Assembly: GCA_020060565.1 (NCBI GenBank)
Contig: JAGVAE010000002.1
Location: 307,270-371,269, forward strand
Reading direction: 5' to 3'
Source of the DNA: Candidatus Woesebacteria bacterium
Lineage (GTDB): Bacteria; Patescibacteriota; Microgenomatia; UBA8517
Length of the DNA stretch: 64,000 nt
This document shows, piece after piece, positions 4,843 to 47,194 of this stretch (position 1 is the first letter of the stretch; each line of letters begins with the position of its first letter). The notes under the pieces are model-generated. The model was not told the origin of the DNA. It worked only from the letters and a program-made list of their open reading frames with translations, and did not search any database. Position numbers and translations under genes: made by a program.

Positions 4843-5526
4843 ATGGAACCCGAGGAAAATCAGTCAGTAGAACAGGAACAATCTGTGCAACAGTCTTCTT
4901 ATCAAGAACCTGAACAGTCCAGTGGTGTTTCTTTCCCAACAGTAGGCGAACAAAAAAAATCTGGAGGAGCAAAAACAATTTTAATAGTAGGTATTTTAAT
5001 TTTGGTAGCCATCCTTGGATTTGTAATTTATAAAAGTGCAAGCAAAAAAACGGATGGTACATCTTCTGAGCCAATCTCTTACGATGGTTTAACCACACCA
5101 TCTTCAGAACTAATAGTTGAGCCAGTTACACCGGCTCCTTCTCCTGCAGCTTCCGTTGATAAAACCAAGATTAAAGTTCAAGTTCAAAACGGAACAGGAA
5201 TAACGGGGGAAGCGGCTTACCTTCAAACCCAGCTTAAAGATTTGGGGTATATAGATGTTAAAGTTGGCAATAGTGAATCTACAGTTTCAACAACTACAGT
5301 TAGCTTTTCAAATAAATTAGACCCAAGTGTTGTGAGTGAAATCACTCAAAAATTAAATTCGGTTTATCAAACAGTTACAACCAATACTTTAACCTCTTCC
5401 ACTTATGATGTTGTAGTTGTAACAGGTCTTAAAAAGGGAGCAACCCCTAAACCATCTGTTAGCCCAACAGCAAGCGCTTCTGCGTCGCCATCTGCTTCTC
5501 CGACTCCATCACCAACCTCAACTTAA
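4843..5526 (+). CDS. LytR_C (LytR/CpsA/Psr C-terminal) domain membrane protein with an S/P/T/A-rich tail. The ORF track starts it at GTG 4819; the first ATG is at 4843.
   Basis: Single transmembrane helix (ILIVGILILVAILGFVIY), then 'KIKVQVQNGTGITGEAAYLQTQLKDLGYIDVKVGNSES..TTTV', a typical LytR_C block. The C-terminus is SPTASASASPSASPTPSPTST. Confidence 0.5.
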   Translation: MEPEENQSVEQEQSVQQSSYQEPEQSSGVSFPTVGEQKKSGGAKTILIVGILILVAILGFVIYKSASKKTDGTSSEPISYDGLTTPSSELIVEPVTPAPSPAASVDKTKIKVQVQNGTGITGEAAYLQTQLKDLGYIDVKVGNSESTVSTTTVSFSNKLDPSVVSEITQKLNSVYQTVTTNTLTSSTYDVVVVTGLKKGATPKPSVSPTASASASPSASPTPSPTST

Positions 5527-5548
5527 CAAGATGCTATAATATTAATAT

Positions 5549-6010
5549 ATGCCCGATTTAAGTCAGACATTGTTTGAAACTTTCAATTTAAGTTTGGGTA
5601 AGATTTCTATCCCTGTTCCATATTGGCAAGCAGCAGCCATAGTTGCTCTAATTTTTTTTCTGATACTGCTTTTAGCAAAATTTCGTGAGCATTCTATTCA
5701 CTGGTCGTTAAAAGGTGGAGTATTTGGAATATTTTTTGGATTTCTGTTGGCCTTGATTTTGGAAGGATTTCTTCTAATTGGAGGTAAGACTGTACTAACT
5801 GAAGCTTTGGGTTGGAAAAATCCACCAACACCAATTGCGCACTTACTGGACGCAGGAAGGTCTGAACTTATTAATGTATTGGGTATTAAAACTGAAATAC
5901 CAACTTCATATGCGAAGGAAAATGTTTCAGTTCAGGATGCAATGGAAGTTATCCAGAGTTTGAATCCAAGTGATATTACCAAAGTCAAAAACATCCTTTG
6001 TTCTCCTTAG
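5549..6010 (+). CDS. Hypothetical small membrane protein with two or three transmembrane helices.
   Basis: ATG start, hydrophobic helices, no recognisable domain. Confidence 0.35.
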   Translation: MPDLSQTLFETFNLSLGKISIPVPYWQAAAIVALIFFLILLLAKFREHSIHWSLKGGVFGIFFGFLLALILEGFLLIGGKTVLTEALGWKNPPTPIAHLLDAGRSELINVLGIKTEIPTSYAKENVSVQDAMEVIQSLNPSDITKVKNILCSP

Positions 6011-6028
6011 TTTGGTATACTTCAAGGA

Positions 6029-7057
6029 ATGGAAGAATTAATAGATAGACTGAATAAGCTTAAGATATCTGCTGATATTGAAGGAAAGAAAGAAAGGATC
6101 AAAATTCTTGAGGGAGAATCAACCAAAGCTAATCTTTGGGATGATCCCAATTATGCAAGACGGGTAACCCAGGAGTTGAGTGATTTAAATAAAGAAGTAG
6201 AAGAAATTCAAGAACTTTCGGAGACTTTGGAAATCTTAACACAAGTCAATGATGAAAGCGAATTAAGAAAAGCTGAAAAAGCCCTAGAAAGATTGGAAAT
6301 GACGACTTATCTTTCTGGTAAGTATGATGTTAAAAATGCAATAGTTTCAATTCACGCAGGTCAGGGAGGAACGGAGGCTATGGATTGGGTCTCAATGCTA
6401 CTTCGTATGTATATGCGTTTTTGTGAAAGGAGAGAATGGAAGACGGAAACTTTTGAATATACTCCAGGGGAGGAAGCTGGGATTAAAAGTGTTATCTTTA
6501 ATGTTTCGGGAAGACATGCTTATGGTTATCTAAAAGGTGAAGCAGGAACCCATAGGCTTGTCAGGCAATCTCCATTTAATGCGGACAAATTAAGACAGAC
6601 CTCATTTGCGCTTGTGGAAGTCATGCCTGAGCTTGAAGAAACTGATGCTTCAGACATTGATATTAAAGATAGTGATTTGGATTGGCAATTTATTCACGCT
6701 GGAGGTCACGGGGGGCAAAATGTAAATAAAGTAGCAACTGCAGTACGCTTAACACATATTCCATCAGGAATAGTTATTACCGCCTCAACTGAAAGATTCC
6801 AAGAACAAAATAGGAAAATTGCCTTAAGTTTACTTCGAGGAAAACTTTGGCTGCGTGAACAAGAGATTGCCAAAGGACTTAAAAAGGATATAAAAGGGGA
6901 TTATCGTCCTGCTTCTTGGGGAAATCAGATCAGAAGTTATGTCCTCCATCCATATAAAATGGTAAAGGATTTGCGGACTGAAGTCGAAACAGGAAATACA
7001 GATGTAGTATTAGATGGGGGGATCGACGAATTTATTGATGCTGAGTTGAAAATGTAA
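6029..7057 (+). CDS. prfB: Peptide chain release factor 2, encoded as a single uninterrupted ORF with no +1 frameshift site.
   Basis: GGQ motif 'GGHGGQNVNKV', the RF2-specific 'SPF' tripeptide (RQSPFNADKLRQTSFA), and an intact N-terminus MEELIDRLNKL. Confidence 0.9.
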   Translation: MEELIDRLNKLKISADIEGKKERIKILEGESTKANLWDDPNYARRVTQELSDLNKEVEEIQELSETLEILTQVNDESELRKAEKALERLEMTTYLSGKYDVKNAIVSIHAGQGGTEAMDWVSMLLRMYMRFCERREWKTETFEYTPGEEAGIKSVIFNVSGRHAYGYLKGEAGTHRLVRQSPFNADKLRQTSFALVEVMPELEETDASDIDIKDSDLDWQFIHAGGHGGQNVNKVATAVRLTHIPSGIVITASTERFQEQNRKIALSLLRGKLWLREQEIAKGLKKDIKGDYRPASWGNQIRSYVLHPYKMVKDLRTEVETGNTDVVLDGGIDEFIDAELKM

Positions 7058-7100
7058 TTTTCGATTTGCGTTTTTGGCTTTTATAGTGTTATATTTGGTT

Positions 7101-7538
7101 ATGGAACCAATAAACCCCCAGCCAGTAGTAGGGCCTGTGCAGAATTTAAATACAAATAAAACCTGGATGTATATTGTTGGTGCTTTTCTTGTTGTTGTTT
7201 TGGGTGTGGGGGGTGGCTGGCTAATTTCTTCAAAAGTAATTAACAAAGGTCCTGTTGCAGCACCTGGTACAAAAGTGACTTCAACTGAAGCTGGGGTACT
7301 TGATGCCAATACCAAATATGATAATGCAACAGGAGTTATGAAAGAAGGAGGAACGGGGAATGAGGGAACACACCACCTTGATCGTGAAGGTGGAGTTGAT
7401 CAGACAGTTTATTTGACTTCAAGTGTGATTGACCTATCTAGTTTTAATGGTAAAAAGGTTCAGGTTTGGGGTCAAACATTAGCTTCAAAGAAAGCTGGAT
7501 GGCTGATGGATGTTGCTAAAGTACAAGTCATTCAGTAA
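7101..7538 (+). CDS. Hypothetical secreted or membrane-anchored protein. ATG at 7101; the track's TTG at 7074 is also possible.
   Basis: An N-terminal hydrophobic helix followed by a Gly/Thr-rich soluble region. No known domain. Confidence 0.35.
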   Translation: MEPINPQPVVGPVQNLNTNKTWMYIVGAFLVVVLGVGGGWLISSKVINKGPVAAPGTKVTSTEAGVLDANTKYDNATGVMKEGGTGNEGTHHLDREGGVDQTVYLTSSVIDLSSFNGKKVQVWGQTLASKKAGWLMDVAKVQVIQ

Positions 7539-7574: not shown

Positions 7575-8243
7575 ATGTCTCACGAAAAGAAAAATATTAT
7601 TCATTTTGAGAAGGTAACAAAGAAATTTGGTGGTATGGCTGCGGTTGATAATGTTTCATTTGATGTAGAAGATGGTGAATTTGTTTTTATCACAGGTCCT
7701 TCAGGGGCAGGAAAAACTACACTTCTTAAGTTAATTCTGGGAGAAATATCCTCAAGCAGCGGGGAAGTGATAGTTGATGGTGTGAATGTTGAAAATTTAA
7801 AAGAAAAAGAATTACCCTACTTTCGCCAAAAAATAGGTATAGTATTTCAAGATTTTAAGGTACTACCACAGCGTTCAGTTTCTGAAAATATAGAAGTTGC
7901 TCTAGCTGTAACAGGAGTTGATGAAGCCCAATGGCAGGAAAGAATAAAACACGTTCTTAAACTGGTGGGACTTTCTCGTCAGGAGGATCTTTTTCCATCT
8001 CAACTTTCAGGAGGAGAACTGCAAAGAGTTTCTTTAGCACGTGCTTTGAGTGTTAATCCCAAGCTTCTTTTGGCAGATGAGCCGATGGGAAACTTAGATT
8101 GGGAAACATCTGATTCAATAATGCAATTATTTGAAAAAATTAACAAAGAAGGTAAAACCATAGTGATGGCGACACATAACTTGGAAATTGTTAAGAAATA
8201 TAAAAAGCGTGAGATACATATAGTAGGTGGTAAAATAAATTAA
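7575..8243 (+). CDS. ftsE: Cell-division ABC transporter ATP-binding protein FtsE.
   Basis: Walker A 'GPSGAGKTT', signature 'LSGGELQRVSLARAL', Walker B 'LLLADEP'. About 222 aa counted from ATG 7575. Confidence 0.85.
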   Translation: MSHEKKNIIHFEKVTKKFGGMAAVDNVSFDVEDGEFVFITGPSGAGKTTLLKLILGEISSSSGEVIVDGVNVENLKEKELPYFRQKIGIVFQDFKVLPQRSVSENIEVALAVTGVDEAQWQERIKHVLKLVGLSRQEDLFPSQLSGGELQRVSLARALSVNPKLLLADEPMGNLDWETSDSIMQLFEKINKEGKTIVMATHNLEIVKKYKKREIHIVGGKIN

Positions 8244-8273
8244 TTAAAAAATAAAAATTTATAATTTAAAATT

Positions 8274-9191
8274 ATGAAAAGTATTCATCTTAAAACTGCA
8301 CTGGGATGTATGAGAAGGTCTCCGTTTCAGGCTATGGCTGCTACATTTGTTTTGAGCCTTACCTTTTTTGTCGCCACTTTAGTATCTGTTCTTGTTTATT
8401 CTTCATCTCAGCTTCTAAATTATTTTGAGTCTCGTCCTCAGGTGATTGCTTTTATTAAAGATGGGACTACCGATACCCAAGTTGCTGATTTACAACATAA
8501 GCTGGAAAGCGAGGAAAAAATTGAAAATGTTAAGTATGTAAGTAAAGAGGAAGCTCTCTCTATTTATAAAAAAGCTACTAGCGATAATCCACTTTTGGGA
8601 CAGCTTGTAAGTCCATCAATTTTTCCTGCTTCCCTAGAATTTTCTGTAAACGACTTATCCTTTGCCCAAGATATTATTGATCAAATAAAGAGCGAGGATA
8701 TAGTTGATTCTGTTGGTTTTACCGCTGCAGTTGGTGGGGAGGCTAATTTAAACGATGTTGTCAATAGACTTAAAACCATAACTACATATGTTAGATTGGG
8801 AGGTGGAATATTTACAGGAGTTTTGGCTCTGGCTTCATTTGTTGTTCTTCTTATAACAATAACAATGAGAATGGCAACACGCAAAGAAGAAATTGAGATA
8901 CTAAATCTTATTGGGGCAACCAAAGCATTTATAAGAAGTCCTATCATGCTTGAGGCTCTTATATATGCCGTAGTTGGTGTTTTTGTTGGTTGGATACTGT
9001 GCTTTATTACTGTTTTATATTCGGCTCCTGGCTTGGTTTCTTATTTTGGTGAAATTCCAGTTCTTCCAAAAGATACGCTTGGGATTCTTACAATCTTTGG
9101 AATTATTTTGGGAGTAGAGCTTTTGGGCGGTCTTATTTTGGCAATTTCAGGAAGTTTACTTGCAATTTCAAGAGTCAGAAAATCAAGATGA
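8274..9191 (+). CDS. ftsX: Cell-division permease-like protein FtsX.
   Basis: N-terminal 'LKTALGCMRRSPFQAMAATFV', a large extracellular loop, three C-terminal transmembrane helices, and a position directly downstream of ftsE. Confidence 0.8.
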   Translation: MKSIHLKTALGCMRRSPFQAMAATFVLSLTFFVATLVSVLVYSSSQLLNYFESRPQVIAFIKDGTTDTQVADLQHKLESEEKIENVKYVSKEEALSIYKKATSDNPLLGQLVSPSIFPASLEFSVNDLSFAQDIIDQIKSEDIVDSVGFTAAVGGEANLNDVVNRLKTITTYVRLGGGIFTGVLALASFVVLLITITMRMATRKEEIEILNLIGATKAFIRSPIMLEALIYAVVGVFVGWILCFITVLYSAPGLVSYFGEIPVLPKDTLGILTIFGIILGVELLGGLILAISGSLLAISRVRKSR

Positions 9192-10351
9192 AAGAATATG
9201 GAAAAAAATTATTATTTCTCCTATTTGTCCTAATACTTCTTTTTGGGACATTTTCTATTGTTAAGGCGCAAGCTTGTAATAACGCAGAAGAATGTCAGAA
9301 ACTTATTGATGAATATTCAGACCAGATAACAATACTTCAAGGGCAGGCAAAAACTTTGAAAAATCAAATTGCTCAATTTGATGCTCAAATTAAGTTGACG
9401 ACATTAAAGATTAATCAAACTCAGGCTCAGATTAACCTTTTAGGCGGACGTATAGATCAACTTGAAATTTCTTTAAATGACTTAACCAAAGCTTTTTCTT
9501 CGCGCGTAGTAGAAACATATAAACTTTCAAAGTTTGAGAATAGCCTTTTTTTCTTCCTTGGCGCAGATGATATAAACGATGCAACTCAAAGATTTCATTA
9601 TTTGAAAAAAATAGAAGAAGAAGATAGAAATTTATTAAATAAACTTGAGATAGCACAAACTACATATAAGGGAGAAAAAACTGATCAGGAGGAACTACAA
9701 AAAAAACTTAAGGATCAACAAGCAAAACTAAATGCTCAAAAAACCGCAAAGAATAGCCTGCTGGCTGCAACTAAGAATGATGAGTCTAAATATCAGTCAC
9801 TTCTTTCTCAAGCAAAAGCACAGCTTTCTGCATTTAATAGATTCGTTGCTGGTCAGGGTGGAGCGTCAATTTTAAGTAATCAAACAAAATGTAGTTCTTG
9901 GGGTTGTTATTACAATCAAAGAGATTCTCAATGGGGGAATATTGGAATGGGTGGTTCATCGTATTCAATGGCTAGTTATGGATGTTTAGTCACCTCGGTA
10001 TCTATGATAGCCAGCCACTATAACAAAAATATTAAACCTGGAGATATTGCAGTCAACTCAGAAGCTTTTGTACCAAGCACTGGCTACTTGTATCACGATT
10101 TTAATGTAAATGGTGTCAAAGTAACAATTAACAGCGCCTCTAGGTCACTATTAGATAGTGAACTTTCAGCAGGAAGACCTGTTATCGCGGGATTGTATTC
10201 AGGTCCAGATCACTTCATAGTAATACTTAGGAAAGATGGAGATAAATATATAATGAACGATCCATTTATGGAAAATGGGGATGAGAAATCTCTAACTGAT
10301 AAATATAGCGTCTCAGATATTACAAGTCTTCGTTTGGTAAGTTTTAATTAA
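9188..10351 (+). CDS. Coiled-coil protein with a C-terminal papain-like (Peptidase_C39_2/CHAP-like) cysteine peptidase domain. Putative FtsEX-activated peptidoglycan hydrolase, analogous to EnvC/PcsB/RipC.
   Basis: Signal/transmembrane helix, about 200 aa of heptad-rich coiled coil (QAKTLKNQIAQFDAQIKLTTLKINQTQAQINLL...), then 'YSMASYGCLVTSVSMIASHY' (a Cys nucleophile block like C39_2 'CGPTSLAMVLSYYG') and a downstream 'DHFIVIL' His. Its start overlaps the ftsX stop (ATGA). Confidence 0.55.
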   Translation: MKEYGKKLLFLLFVLILLFGTFSIVKAQACNNAEECQKLIDEYSDQITILQGQAKTLKNQIAQFDAQIKLTTLKINQTQAQINLLGGRIDQLEISLNDLTKAFSSRVVETYKLSKFENSLFFFLGADDINDATQRFHYLKKIEEEDRNLLNKLEIAQTTYKGEKTDQEELQKKLKDQQAKLNAQKTAKNSLLAATKNDESKYQSLLSQAKAQLSAFNRFVAGQGGASILSNQTKCSSWGCYYNQRDSQWGNIGMGGSSYSMASYGCLVTSVSMIASHYNKNIKPGDIAVNSEAFVPSTGYLYHDFNVNGVKVTINSASRSLLDSELSAGRPVIAGLYSGPDHFIVILRKDGDKYIMNDPFMENGDEKSLTDKYSVSDITSLRLVSFN

Positions 10352-10395: not shown

Positions 10396-11199
10396 ATGAT
10401 TCGAATAATTAAAGTCCTGTTGAGTTTAATATTAATTGGATTATTTAACCCTTTGTCGGTTTCAAGAGTTTTTGCACAAGTAGTTATTAATGAATTTGTA
10501 ATAAACGGAAGCCCTGAATGGGTAGAATTTTATAATGCGAGTTCTTCTGCTGATTATATAAAGAATTATTATATAGACGATGACATTAGTTTTATGGATG
10601 ATTCCGGAACCGGAACAAGAAAATCATTATCGTTACTGAATGTTTCAAATCCTACATATCCATTTATTGAAACTTCGTCTTTTTTCAACAATCCTGGGGA
10701 TTGGGTTGTATTATTTGACCAAAGTGGAAATATTTTAGATCAATATCAATATACATCTGACCCAGGAAAAGATATATCAATTGGAAGGTACCCTGATAAT
10801 GCAGGAACATTTTCAGTTTTGGCATATTCGACAAAAGCTGATGGAAATTCTGCGCCCTCTACCCCTGTTCCCACTTCCACTTCTCAGCCCACTAATACTC
10901 CAACTCCAACCTCAACTCCAATTTCTACCCCAATTCCAACAAAAACTCCCATCCCAACTCCAACCAAAGCACCAACAATGACACCAACTCCAACCATAAG
11001 CCCTACCGGGGAATCATCTACTGCTTCAGGAGACGTTTTAGGATCTGAAGCTGTCATAGATAGTCCTTCACCTGTCTCTGAAAATAAAAATATAGTTATT
11101 GCTATTGTTTTTGTAGGATTGGGAACAATACTGATTGGAGGATCTATTTATTGGGTCATTAGAACTTCCAAGTCAGCCAAACCCCAGAATGATATATAA
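10396..11199 (+). CDS. Lamin-tail-domain (LTD) surface protein with a Pro/Thr-rich linker and a C-terminal transmembrane anchor.
   Basis: Signal peptide, then 'VVINEFVINGSPEWVEFYNAS', the LTD signature. The linker is PTSTSQPTNTPTPTSTPISTPIPTKTPIPTPTKAPT, followed by a C-terminal helix IVIAIVFVGLGTILIGG. Confidence 0.5.
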   Translation: MIRIIKVLLSLILIGLFNPLSVSRVFAQVVINEFVINGSPEWVEFYNASSSADYIKNYYIDDDISFMDDSGTGTRKSLSLLNVSNPTYPFIETSSFFNNPGDWVVLFDQSGNILDQYQYTSDPGKDISIGRYPDNAGTFSVLAYSTKADGNSAPSTPVPTSTSQPTNTPTPTSTPISTPIPTKTPIPTPTKAPTMTPTPTISPTGESSTASGDVLGSEAVIDSPSPVSENKNIVIAIVFVGLGTILIGGSIYWVIRTSKSAKPQNDI

Positions 11200-11208
11200 T
11201 GTTTTATC

Positions 11209-11646
11209 GTGCTCACTAAAATTGTAAAAAGCAAAATTGCAAAACAAATAAATGCTTGGCTTCCAGTGATTCTGTGGGCGGCTCTTATATTTCGTTTTTC
11301 TTCTGGAACAATTCCTTTAGCATCTGCAGTTCATTGGCAGGACTTTTTAGTTAAAAAGACTGGGCATATTTTACTCTTTGGAGCTCTTGCGGTTTTGATT
11401 TATAGAGGACTGAGAATGGAAGGAGTTAGTAGAAAAAGATCGGCAATCTATGCTGTTATTTCAGCTATTTTGTACGGTGCTACTGATGAGTATCACCAAA
11501 TGTACACACAAGGAAGAGAATCGCATATGAGAGACGTTTTTATTGACGGCGGGGGGGCGACTCTGATAATCTTGGCATTGTATTATTTACCACCAAAATT
11601 GTCGGTGAAAATGCATTCGGTTTTTCATAAATTTAATTTGGATTAA
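11209..11646 (+). CDS. VanZ-like family membrane protein. GTG start as in the track.
   Basis: Four transmembrane helices, with 'GHILLFGALAVLIYRG' and 'YGATDEYHQMYTQGR' matching the VanZ family consensus. It contains a G7 tract at 11551-11557. Confidence 0.6.
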   Translation: MLTKIVKSKIAKQINAWLPVILWAALIFRFSSGTIPLASAVHWQDFLVKKTGHILLFGALAVLIYRGLRMEGVSRKRSAIYAVISAILYGATDEYHQMYTQGRESHMRDVFIDGGGATLIILALYYLPPKLSVKMHSVFHKFNLD

Positions 11647-12720: not shown

Positions 12721-13635
12721 ATGTTCGTTCTTAAATTACTTGTCCATTATTTCATACCTCACGAGAGCAATAATCAGAAGGCAAAAGTTTTACATCCCAA
12801 AAGCTTAGGTTTAATTGCTATTTTTCTTATTGCTTTTCAATTTGTTGTTAGTTTGGGAAATACTTCTTTTCCTCAAGTATTGGGATATGCAGCTAATATT
12901 GTACCAAGTGAGGTTGTTCGTCAAACCAATGCCCAAAGGTCAGCGGTCGGACTTTCACCCCTTACTGAAAACTCTGATCTTAGTTCAGCTGCCATAGCCA
13001 AAGGAAATGATATGTTGGCAAAAGGGTATTGGGCACATTTTGCCCCAGATGGAACAAGTCCCTGGACATTCTTTACCCAATTTGGATACAAGTATCAGTA
13101 TGCTGGAGAAAATTTGGCTCGGGATTTTTCGGATGTTTCAAGTGCAATAAATGCCTGGATGAGCTCACCGACACATAAGGAAAATATATTAAATCCACAT
13201 TATAAAGAAATTGGTATAGGGGTAGTTGAAGGTTCTTTGGCTGGAGCAAATACCACAATAATAGTACAGTTTTTTGGAACTTCTCTTTCAGGTTCCCCTT
13301 CAGTCCCAGTTGCCAAAGCAAAAGAAACAATGATTGTTTCAAATGAGTCACCAAAACCGATTGCGCAAGTTTCGACTCCGGTTCCGTTACCTTTACAAAC
13401 TTCTGGAGTAGAAGCTGTAACTGGAGTAACTAAGTTTACAAGTTCTCCCTTCTCTTTTACTAAAAATTTGTCATTAGCGGTTGTTGGTATTCTTCTTTTG
13501 GTTTTATCTATTGACTTGGCAGTAGTTAGACGTAAAAGAATTGCTAGGATTGGGGGGCGTACTTTAGCGCATATCAGCTATCTTGGAATGATTTTGGCCG
13601 TTATACTAATATTAAAAGCAGGACAAATTATTTGA
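12721..13635 (+). CDS. CAP/SCP/PR1-domain (YkwD-like) protein with transmembrane segments at both the N- and C-terminus.
   Basis: 'VVRQTNAQRSAVGLSPLTENSDLSSAAIAKGNDMLAKGYWAHFAPDG...GENLARDF...SSPTHKENILNPHYKEIGIGV', the CAP-domain signature blocks. Confidence 0.6.
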   Translation: MFVLKLLVHYFIPHESNNQKAKVLHPKSLGLIAIFLIAFQFVVSLGNTSFPQVLGYAANIVPSEVVRQTNAQRSAVGLSPLTENSDLSSAAIAKGNDMLAKGYWAHFAPDGTSPWTFFTQFGYKYQYAGENLARDFSDVSSAINAWMSSPTHKENILNPHYKEIGIGVVEGSLAGANTTIIVQFFGTSLSGSPSVPVAKAKETMIVSNESPKPIAQVSTPVPLPLQTSGVEAVTGVTKFTSSPFSFTKNLSLAVVGILLLVLSIDLAVVRRKRIARIGGRTLAHISYLGMILAVILILKAGQII

Positions 13636-13916: not shown

Positions 13917-14807
13917 ATGCAAAAAATTACAAAAGCAGTAATCCCAGCAGCCGGTTTTGGTACAAGATTTCTTCCTCAAACCAAAGCTATGCCAAAAGAA
14001 ATGCTTCCTATTGTTGATAAACCTATTATTCAATACATTGTGGAGGAATTGGTGGACGTTGGTATCAAAGATATCATTATTGTTACAGGCTATCACAAAC
14101 GCACCATTGAAGATCACTTTGATTACCCTAACCTTGATTTAGTTGAGAATTTAAAAATGGGAGGGGAAAAGAAACGCCCAATGCTTGAAGAAGTTGAAAA
14201 AATTGCCAATATGGCAAATTTTGTATACGTTAGACAAAAAGGTCCATACGGAAATGGTACACCACTTCTAAATGTAAAAAGTATGATTGGAAACGAACCC
14301 TTTATTTATACATGGAGTGATGATTTTATAGTGGCAAAACCTTCAAGATTTAAACAACTATTGTCAGCGTATGAAAAGTATGGTTGTAGCTGTTTATCTG
14401 GAGTAAAAGCTAATAAAGATGAAGATTATATAAGATATGGTTTTGTTGGAGGAGACAAGCTTGAACCTGGGATAATTGATGCAAAGGTTCTTGTTGAAAA
14501 ACCAGGCCGTGAGAATGCTCCGTCAGATCTAGCAACTGTTTCAGGGTTTTTATTTACTCCAGACATTTTTAATTATTTGGATAAAGTCCTTGACAATCTG
14601 GAGTCTGGAAAAGAGTTTTATTACAATGATGCTCTAAAGCTTATGCTTGAGGATGGTAAGCGTGTTTTGGGAGTCGAAATTGCCGATGGGAAATATTATG
14701 ACACAGGAAATAAAATCGAATATCTTAAAACCGTTGTAGAATTTGCCCTTAACCATAAAGAGCTTAATGGTAAATTTAGAGAGTATCTTAAAAGCCTTCA
14801 AATATGA
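13917..14807 (+). CDS. galU: UTP--glucose-1-phosphate uridylyltransferase.
   Basis: 'AVIPAAGFGTRFLPQTKAMPKEMLPIVDKPIIQYIVEE' is the classical GalU N-terminus. Confidence 0.8.
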   Translation: MQKITKAVIPAAGFGTRFLPQTKAMPKEMLPIVDKPIIQYIVEELVDVGIKDIIIVTGYHKRTIEDHFDYPNLDLVENLKMGGEKKRPMLEEVEKIANMANFVYVRQKGPYGNGTPLLNVKSMIGNEPFIYTWSDDFIVAKPSRFKQLLSAYEKYGCSCLSGVKANKDEDYIRYGFVGGDKLEPGIIDAKVLVEKPGRENAPSDLATVSGFLFTPDIFNYLDKVLDNLESGKEFYYNDALKLMLEDGKRVLGVEIADGKYYDTGNKIEYLKTVVEFALNHKELNGKFREYLKSLQI

Positions 14808-16723
14808 AACTACTTGTAACCGGCGCCGCGGGATTTATAGGGGCAAACTTTGTACACTATTGGGTTGATAAATACCCAAAGGATGAGATAAGGGTAATTG
14901 ATGCATTAACTTATGCGGGCAATATCGAAAATCTTGCACCTGTTATTAAAAAAATAGATTTTATTGAAGCAGATATTAATGATAGATCAAAAGTTGCGGG
15001 TGCAATGAAAGGGGTGGACGCTGTAATTCATTTTGCTGCAGAAAGCCATGTAGACAGAAGTGTCTTTGATCCCTCAAGGTACTGGCAGACTAATGTTCAT
15101 GGAACTGTTACCCTTCTTGAAGAAGCACATAAACTAGGAATAAACCGCTTCCATCACATTTCAACAGATGAAGTTTACGGTGAGCTTCCACTCCTTTCAG
15201 ATGAAAAATTTAGTGAAAAAACTCCGTATGCTCCCAGACCCGACAACTTATATGCATTAAGTAAAGCTGAAGCTGACAAATTGGTTTTAGAGTTTTATAA
15301 AAAGACTGATATGTATATTACAATTTCAAATTGCTCGAATAATTACGGGCCATATCAATTTCCTGAGAAGTTTATTCCTATCGTTGTCACTAATTTGATT
15401 GATGGTATTCAAATTCCGATTCATGGGGATGGTAGAAATGTTCGTGATTGGATTCATACCAAAGATCATGCAAACGCAATTGATCTAATTCTTCAAAAAG
15501 GTAAAAAGGGAGAAACGTATCTTGTTGGGTCAAATAATGACAGGGATAATAACTACATAGCAGAAAAAATGGTTTCACTTTACGGCGAGGATCCAAATAC
15601 CATTCGCCACGTACCAGATAGACACAGCAATGACAGAAGATACGCAATTGATGCCACAAAAATTATTCAGGAATTAGGTTGGAAGCCAGAGGTTGATAGG
15701 GATAATTTTGATGACGGATTGAAAGAAACAATTGATTGGTATAGAGATAATCAGGATTGGTGGAGACCGCTTCTAAAGAGACGCGCAGTAATTTCAGATG
15801 AAAATAAATCGGTAAGTGCTTTTATCACATTGAACCGCGAGACTGGCAAAACTAAATTTATTTTTGGAAAACTTGAGGCCAAGGAAAAAATAACCCTTCC
15901 CAAAAATGACCTTAAGGAACATTTTGTAGAAGCAAATATAGTAAGGCATGAGATGGTTATCAAAAATTTGGAATCCAAAAAGTGGTATCAAGACAGTTCA
16001 GATGAAATAAAAGACGAGATTAAAGCACTTGCCATGAATCCTTCAACTTTTGGTTATGCTGAGGATCTATCGTCTCATGAGGAAAAAATTGGAAAAGATA
16101 CATTACTTAAACTAATCAAAATTGAGCATGCTCCCAATGAATATGGAATATATGGAATAGGTACATGGTTTGTAGTAGAGAATGAAAAAGGAGACAAAAG
16201 GTCTGAAGGTTATTATTCATGGGGATGGGGTCCAAAGAGCGGTGCTAAGCTTTTGGTTCTAGTCAGAAGAAATGGAGAAATTACCCATTTTGCATTTCAA
16301 AGAGAAGGAAAGTTCCCAACAGGATCTATTGAATATAACCTAGCAGGAGGGTTCCCAAAGTTAAATGAAAGTGTTTTAAATTTTATTTTAAGATCATTAA
16401 AGAAAGATTTGGGATTGGATGTACAAAAAGAAAACATCACTCTAAATGAAATTGTAAGTCTTGGTCGTGTAGCACCTGACTCAGGAATGACAAACAATCA
16501 CCCAAATTTGTATGCCGTAATAGTTGATTTTGAGGATGATGTTTATCCCGATGTTACCGAGGGGGTCAAGTTTGAAGAGAATGAGGGAATAGTTCTCTGG
16601 CCAATAAGTGAAACATCTGAGATTGTTAGTAAATGTGATGACGCCTACTTCTTAGCGGCAATGGCAAGACTTGATTTATCTGGGATATATACTATAAATT
16701 TGACTGAGGATAGAAAGGACTAA
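14804..16723 (+). CDS. rfbB: dTDP-glucose 4,6-dehydratase (RmlB, residues about 1-325) fused to a roughly 310-aa C-terminal extension that ends in a degenerate Nudix-hydrolase-like box.
   Basis: RmlB: 'LLVTGAAGFIGANF', 'HFAAESHVDRS', 'YALSKAEADKL', and a terminal 'IDWYRDNQDWWRPL'. In the extension, 'GGFPKLNESVLNFILRSLKKDLGL' fits Gx5Ex7R[ES]uxEExGu with substitutions. Confidence 0.7.
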   Translation: MKLLVTGAAGFIGANFVHYWVDKYPKDEIRVIDALTYAGNIENLAPVIKKIDFIEADINDRSKVAGAMKGVDAVIHFAAESHVDRSVFDPSRYWQTNVHGTVTLLEEAHKLGINRFHHISTDEVYGELPLLSDEKFSEKTPYAPRPDNLYALSKAEADKLVLEFYKKTDMYITISNCSNNYGPYQFPEKFIPIVVTNLIDGIQIPIHGDGRNVRDWIHTKDHANAIDLILQKGKKGETYLVGSNNDRDNNYIAEKMVSLYGEDPNTIRHVPDRHSNDRRYAIDATKIIQELGWKPEVDRDNFDDGLKETIDWYRDNQDWWRPLLKRRAVISDENKSVSAFITLNRETGKTKFIFGKLEAKEKITLPKNDLKEHFVEANIVRHEMVIKNLESKKWYQDSSDEIKDEIKALAMNPSTFGYAEDLSSHEEKIGKDTLLKLIKIEHAPNEYGIYGIGTWFVVENEKGDKRSEGYYSWGWGPKSGAKLLVLVRRNGEITHFAFQREGKFPTGSIEYNLAGGFPKLNESVLNFILRSLKKDLGLDVQKENITLNEIVSLGRVAPDSGMTNNHPNLYAVIVDFEDDVYPDVTEGVKFEENEGIVLWPISETSEIVSKCDDAYFLAAMARLDLSGIYTINLTEDRKD

Positions 16724-16728
16724 TAAGT

Positions 16729-17313
16729 ATGATGAGATTTGATCCCTTCAAACACGTTAAAAAAACTGGAATTGACGGAGTTGTTTTAATTGAACGACCA
16801 ATTTTGGGAGATGCTCGTGGTTTTCTTCACGAACCGTACAACAAGGAAGAACTAAAAGTTGCAACGGGGGTAGAGTTTAACCCAGTTCAATGGACACATG
16901 CGTATATAAAACCTGGGGTAATAAAAGCAGTTCATTCTGAAGATTGGAATAAATTAATCTATCCCATAACTGGAATTTTGTATGCCCCAATTTGTGATTT
17001 AAGGCCTGATAGTCCCACATTTGGAAAAGTGGAGTATATAAAAATAGACAATACTAAAGAAGATTCCCTCCGCCAGGCGTTGTTTCTACCTTCAGGAGGA
17101 ATAGGAAACTCCATTTGTACGTTGGGAACTGAAATGATGCATTATTTTTATTTAATTGATGAATATTGGGACGATGCAAAGGCTAGAGGGATTGCCTGGA
17201 ATGATCCAGACTTAAATATAAAATGGCCTATCGAAAGTCCAATTCTTTCAGAACGCGATCAAAATAATCCAACCTTAAGAGAGGTTTTTCCAGAGAAATT
17301 TACTTCTAAATGA
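16729..17313 (+). CDS. rfbC: dTDP-4-dehydrorhamnose 3,5-epimerase-like (RmlC cupin).
   Basis: Size of 194 aa, its position between rmlB and rmlD, and 'GVVLIERPILGDARGFLHEPYN'. Confidence 0.55.
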   Translation: MMRFDPFKHVKKTGIDGVVLIERPILGDARGFLHEPYNKEELKVATGVEFNPVQWTHAYIKPGVIKAVHSEDWNKLIYPITGILYAPICDLRPDSPTFGKVEYIKIDNTKEDSLRQALFLPSGGIGNSICTLGTEMMHYFYLIDEYWDDAKARGIAWNDPDLNIKWPIESPILSERDQNNPTLREVFPEKFTSK

Positions 17314-18209
17314 TGAAAAAAGTATTGGCAATTGGCGGCAGTGGAATGGTTGGTTCAAGGTTTTGTGAACTAGCTTCTTCTAAGTTTGATATAGTTTCCA
17401 TCGATGAGAAAACATTGGACATTACAGACAGAAATGCAGTTGAAAAATACTTTGGAGAAAATAAATTTGATTCAGTTGTAAATTTCTCAGCATATACTAA
17501 TGTCAGTGAGGGTGAAAACGATAGAGGAAACGAAGAAGGTTTAGCTTGGAAATTAAACGTCTTGGCCCCAGGTTATTTAGCTGAAGCTTGTTTAAAAAAT
17601 AATATTTTCCTAGTGCATATCTCTACAGATATGGTGTTCTCTGGAGGCAAAAGTGATCCAGGACCGTACTCTGAAGATCATCTAATTCCAGAAGACAGTT
17701 CTGTTGTGACCTGGTATGGATATACAAAAGGGTTAGGGGAAAAAGCTGTGAAAAATATTCTTGGAGAAAAAGCCTGTATTCTTAGATTGATTTATCCATT
17801 CAGGTCACATTTTGAAGGAAAACTTGATTACCTGAGGAAACCCATCCAATTGTACAAAGAAGATAAATTGTACCCTCTGTTTACTGATCAAAAACTTACC
17901 ACAATATTTGTAGATGATGCTTGTAGAATTTTAGAAAGAATTCTTGAGAAAGGTCAAACGGGGATTTTACATGCGAGCTGTACTGACCTAGCTTCTCCTT
18001 ACGATCATGTTTTATATGTCTTAGAAAAAATCGAAGGAAAAGGTATTGAATTAAAGACTGGATTAATAGAGGAGTTTTTAAAAACAGCATCGTCTGTTGT
18101 ACGCTATCCACAATTTGGAGGTTTGAAAACAGAAAGGACACAAGAGGTGTTGGGAATGAAGTTCAGGACTTGGCGACAGATGGTTGATTCTTTTGTCTCC
18201 AATCTCTAA
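17310..18209 (+). CDS. rfbD: dTDP-4-dehydrorhamnose reductase-like (RmlD).
   Basis: 'MMKKVLAIGGSGMVGSRF' Rossmann motif, about 299 aa, and 'VHISTDMVFSG' typical of RmlD. Confidence 0.6.
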   Translation: MMKKVLAIGGSGMVGSRFCELASSKFDIVSIDEKTLDITDRNAVEKYFGENKFDSVVNFSAYTNVSEGENDRGNEEGLAWKLNVLAPGYLAEACLKNNIFLVHISTDMVFSGGKSDPGPYSEDHLIPEDSSVVTWYGYTKGLGEKAVKNILGEKACILRLIYPFRSHFEGKLDYLRKPIQLYKEDKLYPLFTDQKLTTIFVDDACRILERILEKGQTGILHASCTDLASPYDHVLYVLEKIEGKGIELKTGLIEEFLKTASSVVRYPQFGGLKTERTQEVLGMKFRTWRQMVDSFVSNL

Positions 18210-18813
18210 TCTCTTTGTGATTTCCACCTAAAAGTACACTTGGAACTTTATGCCCTTTGTAATTTTCGGGTCTGGTGTATTGAGGATACTCTAGGTATCC
18301 AGGTTCCTTGTGGGATTCCACTGCCGAGGACTCATCTTTTCCCAAAACTCCTGGAATAAGGCGTATTACCGAGTCAACCAGTACCATTGCAGGAATTTCT
18401 CCTCCCGTAAGAACATAATCTCCAATAGAAATAATCTCATCAACTAGGTTTTCATGAACTCGATGATCAACACCTTCATAATGTCCTGCAATTAAAATTA
18501 GATGGTTATACTTTGAAAGCTCAACCGCTTTTTGCTGTACAAATCTTTTTCCTGTAGCGTCAAGGAGGATTACCCTTGACGATTTAGTTCGTAGGTCTTT
18601 TAAGGCATTATCAACAATATCAACACGAAGTAGCATCCCAGGACCTCCTCCATACGGTTTATCATCAACACTGCGGCGTTCTCCTTCCCCCCATTTCCTT
18701 AAATCATGCACTCTAACTTTAATGAGATCCCTGCTCTCGGCACGCTTAATAATGGAAGCATCAAAGGGTCCATCAAACATGTCTGGGAAGAGAGTGATTA
18801 TGTCAATTTCCAT
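18163..18813 (-). CDS. trmD: tRNA (guanine37-N1)-methyltransferase.
   Basis: 'IDIITLFPDMFDGPFDASIIKRA' and 'GHYEGVDHRVHE' (SPOUT knot). Length 216 aa. Confidence 0.9.
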   Translation of the reverse strand: MEIDIITLFPDMFDGPFDASIIKRAESRDLIKVRVHDLRKWGEGERRSVDDKPYGGGPGMLLRVDIVDNALKDLRTKSSRVILLDATGKRFVQQKAVELSKYNHLILIAGHYEGVDHRVHENLVDEIISIGDYVLTGGEIPAMVLVDSVIRLIPGVLGKDESSAVESHKEPGYLEYPQYTRPENYKGHKVPSVLLGGNHKEIRDWRQKNQPSVAKS

Positions 18814-18834
18814 ATGTGTATTGTATCATTAAGT

Positions 18835-19992
18835 ATGGACAAAATAGTCATTGTTATGCCTGCTTATAATGAGGCAGAAAATATTAAGCTCATGATTACC
18901 GAGCTTTTTAATGAGGTTTTTCCCAAGGTTGAGAACGTCGAAATGCACCTATTGGTGGTTGATGATTATTCTCCAGACGGAACTGGGGATATAGTTAAAA
19001 GCTTTCAGGATAAATACAAGAATTTGCATATGCTCCAAAAGCAAAAAGAAGGATTGGGTTGGGCATACATCAGGGGTTTCCAGTATGCAATTGATAAATT
19101 AAATGCAGATGCAGTGATGGAAATGGATGCCGATTTTCAACACCCTCCGCGCTTCGTGAAACCAATGGTTGAAGCCTATTTGAATGGTGCCGATTATTGT
19201 ATAGGAAGTAGATATATAAAAGGAGGATCTGTTCCAAGGCAGTGGGCACTATCCAGGAAAGCCATCAGTTATTTTGGAAATTTGTTTATTAGGCTTGTTC
19301 TTCTTAAGCCTTCCATTCATGATTTAACAACAGGATTTAGGTTGGCTAGAGTTAAGGGGATTTTAGATAAGATTGATTTAAATAATTTAATGGAGCCTAC
19401 AAGGTTTGCCTACAAAGTAGATTTACTTTATCAGTGTATTAAAAACTCTAAAAAAACAGTTGAGGTTCCATTGGAGTTTGCTGCAAGAACAAAAGAAGTT
19501 TCAAAGTTTAATCCCAAAGAAATGACCTCAACTTTCAAGGTTGCAATTATTCTGGGGATTAAAGATAAGATTAGATTTATTAAATTTGGTGTTGTTGGCT
19601 TTGTTGGTTTTGCAGTTAATTATTTGGGATTGGAGCTTTTAAAACGCTTGGGACTTTCTACTTATTTTGCAACACTTTTTGCAACTGAGGCCGCAATCGT
19701 TTCAAATTTTATACTAAACAATATTTGGACATTTAAAGACAAAATAATAACTTCTTTTAAAGATTTAATAGTTCAGTTTTTGAAGTTTAATTTTTCATCT
19801 CTTTTTGCTGTAATTGTACAGCCATTAATTGTTGCAGGTGTAGCTAAACTATTTGGAGATACATCACTGATTCGTTTTGGGGCTCTCATATTTGCCTTAA
19901 TTTTTGTTATCGTTCCCTATAACTACGTTGTTTACAATCTTTTTATCTGGCGAACTTGGAAAATCCCCAAATTTTTCAAGAGAGATAGATAA
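18835..19992 (+). CDS. GT2 polyprenyl-phosphate sugar synthase (DPM1/GtrB/CsbB-like) fused to a C-terminal GtrA-like flippase domain. Start at ATG 18835 rather than the track's 18706.
   Basis: 'IVIVMPAYNEAENI', 'VDDYSPDGT', and 'MDADFQHPP' (the DxD region). The C-terminal 'KFGVVGFVGFAVNYLGLELLKRLGLSTYFATLFATEAAIVSNFILNNIWTF' matches the GtrA family. Confidence 0.8.
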   Translation: MDKIVIVMPAYNEAENIKLMITELFNEVFPKVENVEMHLLVVDDYSPDGTGDIVKSFQDKYKNLHMLQKQKEGLGWAYIRGFQYAIDKLNADAVMEMDADFQHPPRFVKPMVEAYLNGADYCIGSRYIKGGSVPRQWALSRKAISYFGNLFIRLVLLKPSIHDLTTGFRLARVKGILDKIDLNNLMEPTRFAYKVDLLYQCIKNSKKTVEVPLEFAARTKEVSKFNPKEMTSTFKVAIILGIKDKIRFIKFGVVGFVGFAVNYLGLELLKRLGLSTYFATLFATEAAIVSNFILNNIWTFKDKIITSFKDLIVQFLKFNFSSLFAVIVQPLIVAGVAKLFGDTSLIRFGALIFALIFVIVPYNYVVYNLFIWRTWKIPKFFKRDR

Positions 19993-46185: not shown

Positions 46186-47194
46186 TCCATATTTAGATAC
46201 ATTAGGAGGAGGGGAACGCTATACACTTTCCTTTGTCAAGGCATTAATTGATAAAAGGTATCAGGTAGATATTGAGTGGAAATCCAAAGGAATCGTTAAA
46301 CTTCTTGAAGACCGTTTTGGAATGAACCTTGTGGGGGTCAATGTAGTTGAGAATGTAAACAGGGGAGACGGATATGATCTTTGTTTTTGGGTCAGTGATG
46401 GAAGTATTCCAGCTCTTCGTGCTAGAAAAAACCTTCTCCATTTTCAAATTCCACTCCATGATGTAAACGGAAAGTCCTTGATGAATAAAATGAAACTTTT
46501 TAGAGTAAGTAAAGTAATATGTAACTCCTTTTTTACAAAAAAAATTATCGATAGGGAGTATGGGGTAAACAGTGTTGTTATTTATCCTCCTATTGATACA
46601 AAATCGATAAAACCAAAAAGAAAAGAAAATATAATTTTGTATGTTGGAAGATTTTCCAAACTAACACAAAGTAAAAGGCAAGATGTTTTAGTTCATGCAT
46701 TCAAGAAACTTATTTCTGCAGGGGGTTTATCTGATTGGAAATTAATTTTAGTAGGAGGAATCGAGGTTGGGGTAGATAGTTATTTTGAAGAAATCAAAAA
46801 AATATCATCTGAGCTTCCAATTGAGATAATCACAAGCCCTGATTTTAAGACACTAAAAGAATTATATGGAAGAGCAAAACTATTTTGGTCTGCTTCGGGG
46901 TTTGGAGAGGACGAAGCCAAAAATCCTCAAAAAGTCGAGCATTTTGGTATGACCGTTGTTGAGGCAATGACTGCGGGTGTAGTACCTGTTGTATACAATG
47001 CGGGTGGACATAAAGAAATTATTAGAGATAGTAAAAATGGATTTTTATGGACAAAAGAAAACGACCTTATAAAAATTACCTCCAAAATCATTAAAGATAA
47101 GTCTCTATTAAGAAGGATTTCTGCAAATGCAAAAAGTGATTCAGAATTTTATTCAAAAGAAAAATTTGAAGAGGAAATATTTAAGTTGATATGA
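46166..47194 (+). CDS. GT4 (group 1) glycosyltransferase.
   Basis: 'EHFGMTVVEAMTAGVVPVVYNAGGHKEII', the E-x7-E GT4 motif region. Confidence 0.8.
   Translation: MKAAIYNPYLDTLGGGERYTLSFVKALIDKRYQVDIEWKSKGIVKLLEDRFGMNLVGVNVVENVNRGDGYDLCFWVSDGSIPALRARKNLLHFQIPLHDVNGKSLMNKMKLFRVSKVICNSFFTKKIIDREYGVNSVVIYPPIDTKSIKPKRKENIILYVGRFSKLTQSKRQDVLVHAFKKLISAGGLSDWKLILVGGIEVGVDSYFEEIKKISSELPIEIITSPDFKTLKELYGRAKLFWSASGFGEDEAKNPQKVEHFGMTVVEAMTAGVVPVVYNAGGHKEIIRDSKNGFLWTKENDLIKITSKIIKDKSLLRRISANAKSDSEFYSKEKFEEEIFKLI

Follow-up and report, generated by a model that had tools for sequence, protein, structure and literature searches.

A candidate FtsEX-governed cell-wall hydrolase module with a C39_2-type head in Microgenomates-group Patescibacteria

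A 64-kb stretch of DNA from a Candidatus Woesebacteria bacterium (hereafter 'the window', in which positions are counted from the first letter; the source contig measures 438 kb) carries three tightly packed genes on its forward strand: ftsE (7575-8243), which encodes an ATP-binding cassette (ABC) ATPase of 222 amino acids (aa); ftsX (8274-9191), which encodes a permease-like protein of 305 aa with four transmembrane (TM) segments; and a third gene (9188-10351), the product of which is a 387-aa coiled-coil cysteine peptidase of the C39_2 type, predicted to be secreted, as assigned from Pfam matches, an AlphaFold model, Foldseek comparisons and a family profile. The ATG start codon of the third gene (9188-9190) overlaps the TGA stop codon of ftsX (9189-9191), the two being shared in the four letters ATGA at 9188-9191. 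Both this overlap, which can be read directly from the DNA, and the three forward-strand reading frames had been described in an earlier note on the window, and both are borne out; for the source contig, gene calling at both NCBI and JGI yields identical proteins of 222, 305 and 387 aa. The three genes are treated here as a candidate module for FtsEX-controlled cleavage of the cell wall.

The ATPase scored 265.2 bits against the NCBIfam equivalog model for FtsE (TIGR02673), barely above the cutoff of 264.85, and its catalytic motifs are intact: a Walker A motif, a Q-loop, LSGGE and an H-loop are all present, and LLLADEP is readable as Walker B. Its partner is matched by two Pfam families, FtsX_ECD (aa 56-147, 56.7 bits against a cutoff of 23.5, E 3.8e-15) and the FtsX permease domain (51.4 bits against a cutoff of 25.5, E 1.4e-13), and displays a topology of one TM segment, a large loop and three further TM segments, such that the large extracellular domain (ECD; nucleotides 8439-8714, forward strand) lies between TM1 and TM2. 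It stays under all of the NCBIfam equivalog cutoffs for FtsX (143 bits against 255 for the Gram-negative model, 113 against 225 for the Gram-positive model and 89 against 250 for the actinobacterial model), and is therefore a divergent FtsX. Judged by these domains and motifs, FtsE and FtsX are bona fide.

The third protein starts with a single hydrophobic segment (aa 4-31), with a putative cleavage site between VKA and QA that would delimit a signal peptide of aa 1-27 (9188-9268). A cleavable signal peptide is thus a more plausible reading of the N-terminus than a membrane anchor; of the 'signal/transmembrane anchor' that had been suggested previously, the signal is retained, and an anchored protein was rejected as the poorer fit. 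The following region (aa 30-222) is free of proline and is predicted to form long helices, in keeping with the coiled coil of roughly 200 aa originally proposed. In the full-length AlphaFold model, which has an overall predicted local distance difference test (pLDDT) score of 79.5, this region appears as a helical hairpin (aa 33-222; 9284-9853) built of helices 33-53, 57-114, 129-195 and 199-222, and is followed by a short linker of about 11 aa and a compact alpha/beta domain (aa 234-387). The tip of the hairpin, at aa 110-130 or thereabouts (KLSKFENSLFFFLGADDINDA; 9515-9577), is a low-confidence turn between two long helices (pLDDT 50-58), falls within the match to the Pfam family CC_PcsB (PF24568), and is proposed as the element that docks on the FtsX ECD. 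The CC_PcsB match of the window protein itself (aa 89-154) reaches 22.2 bits, below the Pfam cutoff of 27; the same family was detected in 39 of 43 close family members (best E 2.9e-7), and its cutoff is exceeded in divergent members of the family (32.5 bits in P0229 and 29.6 bits in P0190).

Relationships of the hairpin were sought with a family profile, constructed from 148 diverse representatives (clustered at 50%) and searched against all sequences in the PDB. This profile placed the structurally solved FtsEX partners first, in alignments that spanned the whole hairpin: E. coli EnvC (E 9.3e-20), Vibrio EnvC (2.8e-16), a further EnvC structure (6tpi; 2.5e-15), PcsB (2.7e-9), P. aeruginosa EnvC (4.9e-8), RipA (5.5e-6), Cg1735 (2.6e-5) and RipC (5.2e-4), with generic coiled coils (lamin, SMC and tropomyosin among them) at only 3e-4 to 0.04; composition-bias terms are large in these matches, so that the order of the E-values should be relied on and not their absolute size. 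When the hydrolase sequence alone was searched against the PDB with phmmer, the result was noise only, for example an antibody chain and keratin. By structure, Foldseek gave PcsB (4cgk) as the top match over the whole length of the protein, and also listed the EnvC chain of the FtsEX-EnvC complex solved by cryo-electron microscopy, as well as Cg1735. The earlier view that the architecture is closest to PcsB consequently holds for the whole-length structural comparison and not for the sequence of the coiled coil, which scores higher against EnvC. Homology between the hairpin and the coiled coils of known FtsEX partners (of the EnvC/PcsB/CwlO/RipC type) is supported by these rankings, and the third protein is likely an FtsEX partner through its coiled coil.

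The C-terminal domain (aa 234-387; 9887-10348), predicted to adopt a papain fold, is matched by Peptidase_C39_2 (PF13529; aa 241-359, 32.5 bits against a cutoff of 24), a match that overlaps and outscores one to Peptidase_C39 (PF03412; 25.1 bits against a cutoff of 22) and a weaker one to C70. Peptidase_C39_2 was matched in all 43 close family members (best E 1e-10), in agreement with the C39_2-like papain-fold peptidase that had been anticipated. The label 'CHAP-like', which had been offered alongside, had to be dropped: no match to CHAP, NlpC/P60 or M23 was found among Pfam families in the window protein at E<=0.1, and neither CHAP nor NlpC/P60 is among the Pfam families matched by the 43 members, so that a head of either kind was rejected. 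The residues expected of a cysteine peptidase are strongly conserved. Cys266 (codon 9983-9985, within the motif YGCLVTS), His342 (codon 10211-10213, within PDHFIVIL) and Asp358 (codon 10259-10261), the last followed by Pro359, show no variation in 75 orthologues with identities as low as 37%, and neither do Asn243-Gln244-Arg245, Trp249 and the pair Cys235/Cys240; conservation across the 148 representatives is still 90% or more at the Gln, Gly-Cys, His and Asp-Pro positions. Gln244 is a candidate for the oxyanion-hole residue, and Cys235 and Cys240 may form a disulfide. Modelling of the domain alone gave a confident structure (pLDDT 89.1, predicted template modelling score 0.88). In the full-length model, helix 266-277 begins with Cys266, strand 342-350 begins with His342, and Asp358 comes just past strand 353-357, which is the canonical papain-fold arrangement of a catalytic triad; the Cys/His dyad that the earlier interpretation presupposed is accordingly present. 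By its family matches and conserved residues, the head is an active-looking cysteine peptidase of the C39_2 type.

Comparison of the head with solved structures gave weak matches only (TM score about 0.5, E>=1e-3), to the CdiA-CT toxin of C. rodentium, the papain-like protease toxin 9l5u, the C39 domains of PCAT1, ComA and LahT, SpeB, the C39-like protein 3erv of B. anthracis, and cathepsins; no CHAP or NlpC/P60 structure was found among the top 50 Foldseek matches. In a classification of papain-like enzymes, C39 and C39_2 were assigned to cluster I, and NlpC/P60 and CHAP to cluster II (PMC10318531). The head therefore comes from a different branch than those of PcsB, CwlO and RipC.

The association of this peptidase with ftsEX extends far beyond the window. 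In a survey limited to one genome per GTDB species, 312 genomes were found to encode a relative, and the 80 best-scoring loci were retrieved, so that the linkage figures hold for relatives of at least about 37% identity. The gene ftsX lies immediately upstream and on the same strand in 68 of the 73 loci with at least 1 kb of upstream sequence, and in 63 of these 68 the order ftsE-ftsX-hydrolase is uninterrupted; the linkage in related genomes on which the original proposal depended is thus the rule in this sample. In 23 of 58 loci there is an overlap of 4 or 1 bp between the ftsX stop and the hydrolase start, and in 41 of the 58 the two lie no more than 20 bp apart. Further upstream, prfB, for peptide chain release factor 2, was found in 57 of the 66 loci with at least 4 kb of upstream flank, and a small gene termed p154 in 60 of the same 66 (in 57 loci as the gene next to ftsE on its upstream side). 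Even where domain identity falls to 36%, as in one representative, prfB, a gene for a 180-aa protein, ftsE, ftsX and the hydrolase follow one another in that order, with a 4-bp overlap.

The closest relatives of the window module belong to Woesebacteria and other Microgenomates-group Patescibacteria, and this group also accounts for most of the 312 genomes, with Woese-, Collier-, Shapiro-, Ames-, Levy-, Roizman- and Daviesbacteria and WWE3 among the named lineages; a few records are labelled Parcubacteria or Saccharibacteria. Many of the species-representative metagenome-assembled genomes in the survey bear the title 'uncultured Gammaproteobacteria bacterium' or 'uncultured Pseudomonadales bacterium' (loci L003-L006, L010, L013, L016, L020-L024 and others). 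Their loci have the order prfB-p154-ftsE-ftsX-hydrolase and 40-80% protein identity to Woesebacteria/Microgenomates loci, and the titles are probably wrong. As a separate observation, in Collierbacteria-like loci (L022-L030) the hydrolase shares 50-54% identity with that of the window, against 30-38% for FtsX.

An exhaustive HMMER search with the head alone, against 1.84 billion cluster representatives, produced 804 matches at E<=1e-3 and 149 at E<=1e-10. The strong matches are nearly all proteins of 390-430 aa in which the domain is C-terminal, and a profile of the coiled-coil region matches 114 of the 148 representatives, most of the others being fragments; the head is almost confined to the architecture of coiled coil plus C39_2. 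Departures from it include two proteins in which a pair of LysM modules, replacing the coiled coil, precedes a C39_2 domain with 31-37% head identity (P0263, encoded at 5001-6353 of locus L081, and P0247), the first of which lacks any linkage to ftsEX and adjoins an HtrA-like protease and a two-component system. Other contexts are fusions to Golvesin_C or fn3 and a protein of 1538 aa with dockerin, PA14 and Big_3 domains. A search of the PHROGs collection matched one family, which has no function assigned.

Among characterised FtsEX partners, PcsB of S. pneumoniae (4cgk) bears the greatest overall likeness to the window protein: a length of about 390 aa, a signal peptide, a coiled-coil hairpin with a shared CC_PcsB region, a short linker and a C-terminal papain-fold head with a Cys/His pair. 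Where the two part ways is the head, which is CHAP (cluster II) in PcsB and C39_2 (cluster I) here, and the genetic arrangement, since the pneumococcal pcsB gene is presumably not adjacent to ftsEX, whereas the window genes overlap. CwlO of B. subtilis and RipC of M. tuberculosis (8idc) likewise combine a coiled coil with a cysteine-peptidase head that is activated directly by FtsEX, as is supposed by analogy for the window protein; both carry NlpC/P60 heads, for which the window protein has no match, and RipC has a proline-rich linker of 52 aa in place of about 11. EnvC of E. coli, Vibrio and Pseudomonas (8hd0, 8tzk, 6tpi, 8i6o) is the strongest sequence relative of the coiled coil, its hairpin being known for docking on the FtsX ECD, and differs in having a catalytically dead LytM head that activates separate amidases, in contrast to the invariant Cys/His/Asp triad described above.

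Two further groups of proteins resemble the head alone. Peptidase_C39_2 domains of phage lysins, and the B. anthracis protein 3erv, belong to the same Pfam family, and 3erv is matched by the family profile (E 4.5e-4) as well as by fold; these domains occur either on their own or joined to modules that bind the wall or are otherwise lytic, and none has been described with an FtsX-docking coiled coil or a link to ftsEX. The classification cited above terms C39_2 enzymes 'single-domain peptidases' (PMC10318531). The C39 leader peptidases (ComA, PCAT1, LahT) share a related fold and sequence family and are also tied to an ABC system, but they are cytoplasmic, N-terminal, exporter-fused domains that cut Gly-Gly leaders during export, whereas in the window the peptidase domain forms the C-terminus of a separate protein that begins with a predicted signal peptide and has a non-transporting ABC partner. 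An exporter system of the bacteriocin type was rejected for the window, FtsE and FtsX being bona fide and the peptidase being secreted and unfused to an ABC protein.

To our knowledge, the heads of FtsEX partners known so far number three: LytM (EnvC), CHAP (PcsB) and NlpC/P60 (CwlO, RipC). The head of the window protein corresponds to none of the domains that define PcsB, CwlO, RipC and EnvC, and the description that fits it best is a fourth type of head on a shared regulatory handle. The module is proposed, by analogy, to work as do PcsB, CwlO and RipC, with FtsEX in direct control of a coiled-coil cysteine hydrolase. FtsE, as the cytoplasmic ATPase, and FtsX, with its four TM segments and large extracellular domain, would form an FtsE2X2 mechanotransmitter; the third gene would be translated together with ftsX and its product secreted; the hairpin tip would dock on the extracellular domains of FtsX; the papain-fold head would stay inactive until FtsE, on binding or hydrolysing ATP, shifted the coiled coil; and this movement would free the head to act on the peptidoglycan of the cell itself, in septation or wall growth, by cutting a peptide or amide bond. 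Of these elements, the docking on FtsX, the autoinhibition and release, the peptidoglycan substrate and the role in division would follow the examples of PcsB, RipC and CwlO, with PcsB as the source of the working model in which docking on the FtsX loop is followed by autoinhibition and release (PMC11627006). The docking role suggested for aa 110-130 is modelled on the 'Lip' region of RipC, residues 110-128 of its hairpin tip (PMC11627006), which it matches in position. Docking as such would also fit the conserved linkage of the hydrolase gene to ftsEX and its frequent overlap with ftsX.

On this evidence the locus is fairly probably an FtsEX-governed cell-wall hydrolase module of Microgenomates-group Patescibacteria, which are ultra-small and uncultured, and one in which the catalytic head of the known FtsEX-hydrolase system has been exchanged for another; within the sample, this variant is confined to these lineages. 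Several observations weigh against that reading. The CC_PcsB score of the window protein is below threshold, and the coiled-coil rankings are affected by composition bias, as noted above. In three of the 73 loci (L061, L070 and L074) the gene stands among unrelated neighbours without ftsEX upstream, the two further exceptions being an insertion of 1.8 kb (L079) and a fragment (L038). A survey of bacterial wall-hydrolase families published in 2019 leaves C39 unmentioned (PMC6403190), and the searched literature holds no biochemical evidence of peptidoglycan cleavage by any C39_2 domain. The nearest solved folds of the head, weak as the matches are, belong to enzymes that cleave proteins or peptides, and features of the locus favour neither a role in division nor one in elongation of the kind played by CwlO.

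That the substrate is peptidoglycan seems probable by analogy with the characterised FtsEX partners, and fits with the LysM-fused relatives of the head, LysM being a peptidoglycan-binding module, and with its best viral fold matches, which lie inside a tail tape-measure protein (E 9e-6), a cyanophage 'lysozyme' of 1123 aa, a 'morphogenesis protein 1 hydrolase' and phage 'peptidases'. Phage tail tape-measure proteins and other large virion proteins are the usual setting of virion-associated wall hydrolases. In surveys of phage lysins, Peptidase_C39_2 appears among the lytic catalytic domains (PMC8223927, PMC10541714 and a 2026 preprint), in the first of these for phages of Gram-positive bacteria (PMC8223927). 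Were FtsEX instead to gate a protease that acts outside the cell on something other than peptidoglycan, the coiled coil would sit on FtsX as before and the head would cut a surface protein or peptide, candidate substrates being a Gly-Gly-type site in a secreted, S-layer, pilus or division protein, or the p154 protein or the Lamin-tail domain (LTD) protein encoded alongside; FtsEX would then be a mechanotransmitter for regulated proteolysis and not for wall hydrolysis. The nearest folds and families of the head (C39 leader peptidases, AvrRpt2/C70, SpeB and papain-like protease toxins), the clustering of C39 and C39_2 apart from the wall-cleaving CHAP and NlpC/P60 (PMC10318531), and the conserved, uncharacterised surface proteins that flank the operon all speak for such a protease, but every characterised FtsEX partner works on peptidoglycan, either directly or through amidases (PMC11627006), and the LysM fusions, the matches within phage tail-lysin proteins and the cataloguing of C39_2 among lysin domains likewise point to the wall. 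Such a protease is considered quite unlikely, and its more specific form, in which FtsEX gates a C39-type protease of a surface protein or Gly-Gly peptide, possibly with p154 as a fourth obligatory subunit, is considered improbable.

Even with a wall substrate, the same machinery could open the wall for expansion rather than for separation of daughter cells. The FtsEX-CwlO system of B. subtilis acts in elongation (PMC6705773, PMC3817527), the IMG annotation names the window protein 'CwlO-like', and the locus has no tie to FtsZ or other divisome genes, its neighbours being prfB and envelope genes; given that FtsEX is associated with the divisome in most lineages studied (PMC11627006), such a growth hydrolase is unlikely. 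A degenerate head that recruits or activates a separate hydrolase would have a precedent in EnvC, an FtsEX partner with an inactive head (PMC11627006) and the one against which the coiled coil scores best by sequence, but the invariance of Cys266, His342, Asp358 and Gln244 in the 75 orthologues, and the retention of the Q, G-C, H and D-P positions across the 148 representatives, is the pattern expected of selection for catalysis, and leaves a non-catalytic adaptor barely credible. Only slightly less remote is the thought that the protein is an offensive enzyme of an episymbiotic cell, directed at the wall of its host, with its adjacency to ftsEX either incidental or co-opted for delivery or regulation. 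An episymbiotic life is widely inferred for Patescibacteria, secreted enzymes that hydrolyse the wall are typical weapons between bacteria, and the fold of the head resembles protease toxins of the contact-dependent inhibition and type VI secretion kinds; set against this, the protein has a coiled coil of the FtsX-docking type where a toxin would have a delivery domain, the overlap with ftsX is frequent and synteny with the housekeeping gene prfB is kept across lineages, and no immunity-like gene was recognised nearby.

Cleavage of the wall under FtsEX control is a central, drug-relevant step of bacterial division, and the division and envelope biology of the Candidate Phyla Radiation (CPR), or Patescibacteria, is almost unstudied. 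The searched literature describes neither an FtsEX partner with a C39-type head nor any FtsEX partner from Patescibacteria, although automated labels ('peptidoglycan hydrolase CwlO-like' in IMG, 'C39 family peptidase' at NCBI) were already attached to the protein. The domain swap is plausible and not startling, and automated annotation was right in outline. A fourth head, taken from another branch of the papain-like enzymes, would mean that the docking coiled coil can serve as a regulatory handle for one catalytic domain or another, and would supply a first physiological setting in which to find what C39_2 domains cleave. The direct-hydrolase design, as opposed to the relay from EnvC to amidases in E. 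coli, may also be informative about the envelope type of CPR cells. The operon is compact, relatives exist in 312 species-level genomes, and the proposal can be tested without cultivation of the organism, so that both wall cleavage in CPR bacteria and the activity of C39_2 domains become directly testable.

The three genes stand within a longer co-directional run on the forward strand, in the order prfB (6029-7057, with PCRF and RF-1 domains), p154 (7101-7538), ftsE, ftsX, the hydrolase, an LTD gene (10396-11199) and a VanZ gene (11209-11646). The successive gaps are 16, 36, 30, -4, 44 and 9 bp, and a scan for terminator-like sites found none between any two genes of this cluster. The p154 gene encodes a small single-pass membrane protein of 145 aa in the gene call, in which it begins with ATG at 7101 (the longest reading frame begins with TTG at 7074). 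Its conserved C-terminal domain, of about 75 aa, has the pattern GEG.H.L.R.GG.SQ.VYLTSS..DL...VWG.T...GWLMDV, and Pfam and PDB profile searches revealed no relative. The gene is kept between prfB and ftsE in very divergent loci too, and a protein of similar size that aligns with the p154 family is found at the same position in loci L082 (2661-3203) and L083. CwlO requires SweC and SweD; p154 could be an unrecognised accessory factor of the FtsEX module, comparable to SweC/SweD and to SteA/SteB elsewhere.

Downstream of the hydrolase, the LTD protein combines its Pfam LTD domain with a Pro/Thr-rich linker and a C-terminal TM segment, and the next gene encodes a VanZ-like membrane protein identified by its Pfam VanZ match. 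Both genes recur downstream of the hydrolase in many related loci, and may belong to the module. Scans for tRNA genes and for Rfam families above the gathering score found none anywhere in the 64-kb window. Just downstream of a gene for a GalE-like epimerase, a CAP/SCP (PR-1-like) protein, with a hydrophobic stretch at its N-terminus and a membrane segment at its C-terminus, is encoded on the forward strand at 12721-13635. Beyond it, a long envelope-glycosylation region occupies approximately 13900-60500 of the same strand, with Rml-type sugar-nucleotide enzymes (14804-16723 and 17310-18209), a GT2-GtrA protein (18706-19992), a YfhO-like protein (47191-49524) and a tandem series of reading frames of 500-590 aa, of which all five that were scanned proved to encode PMT_2 (GT-C) glycosyltransferases.

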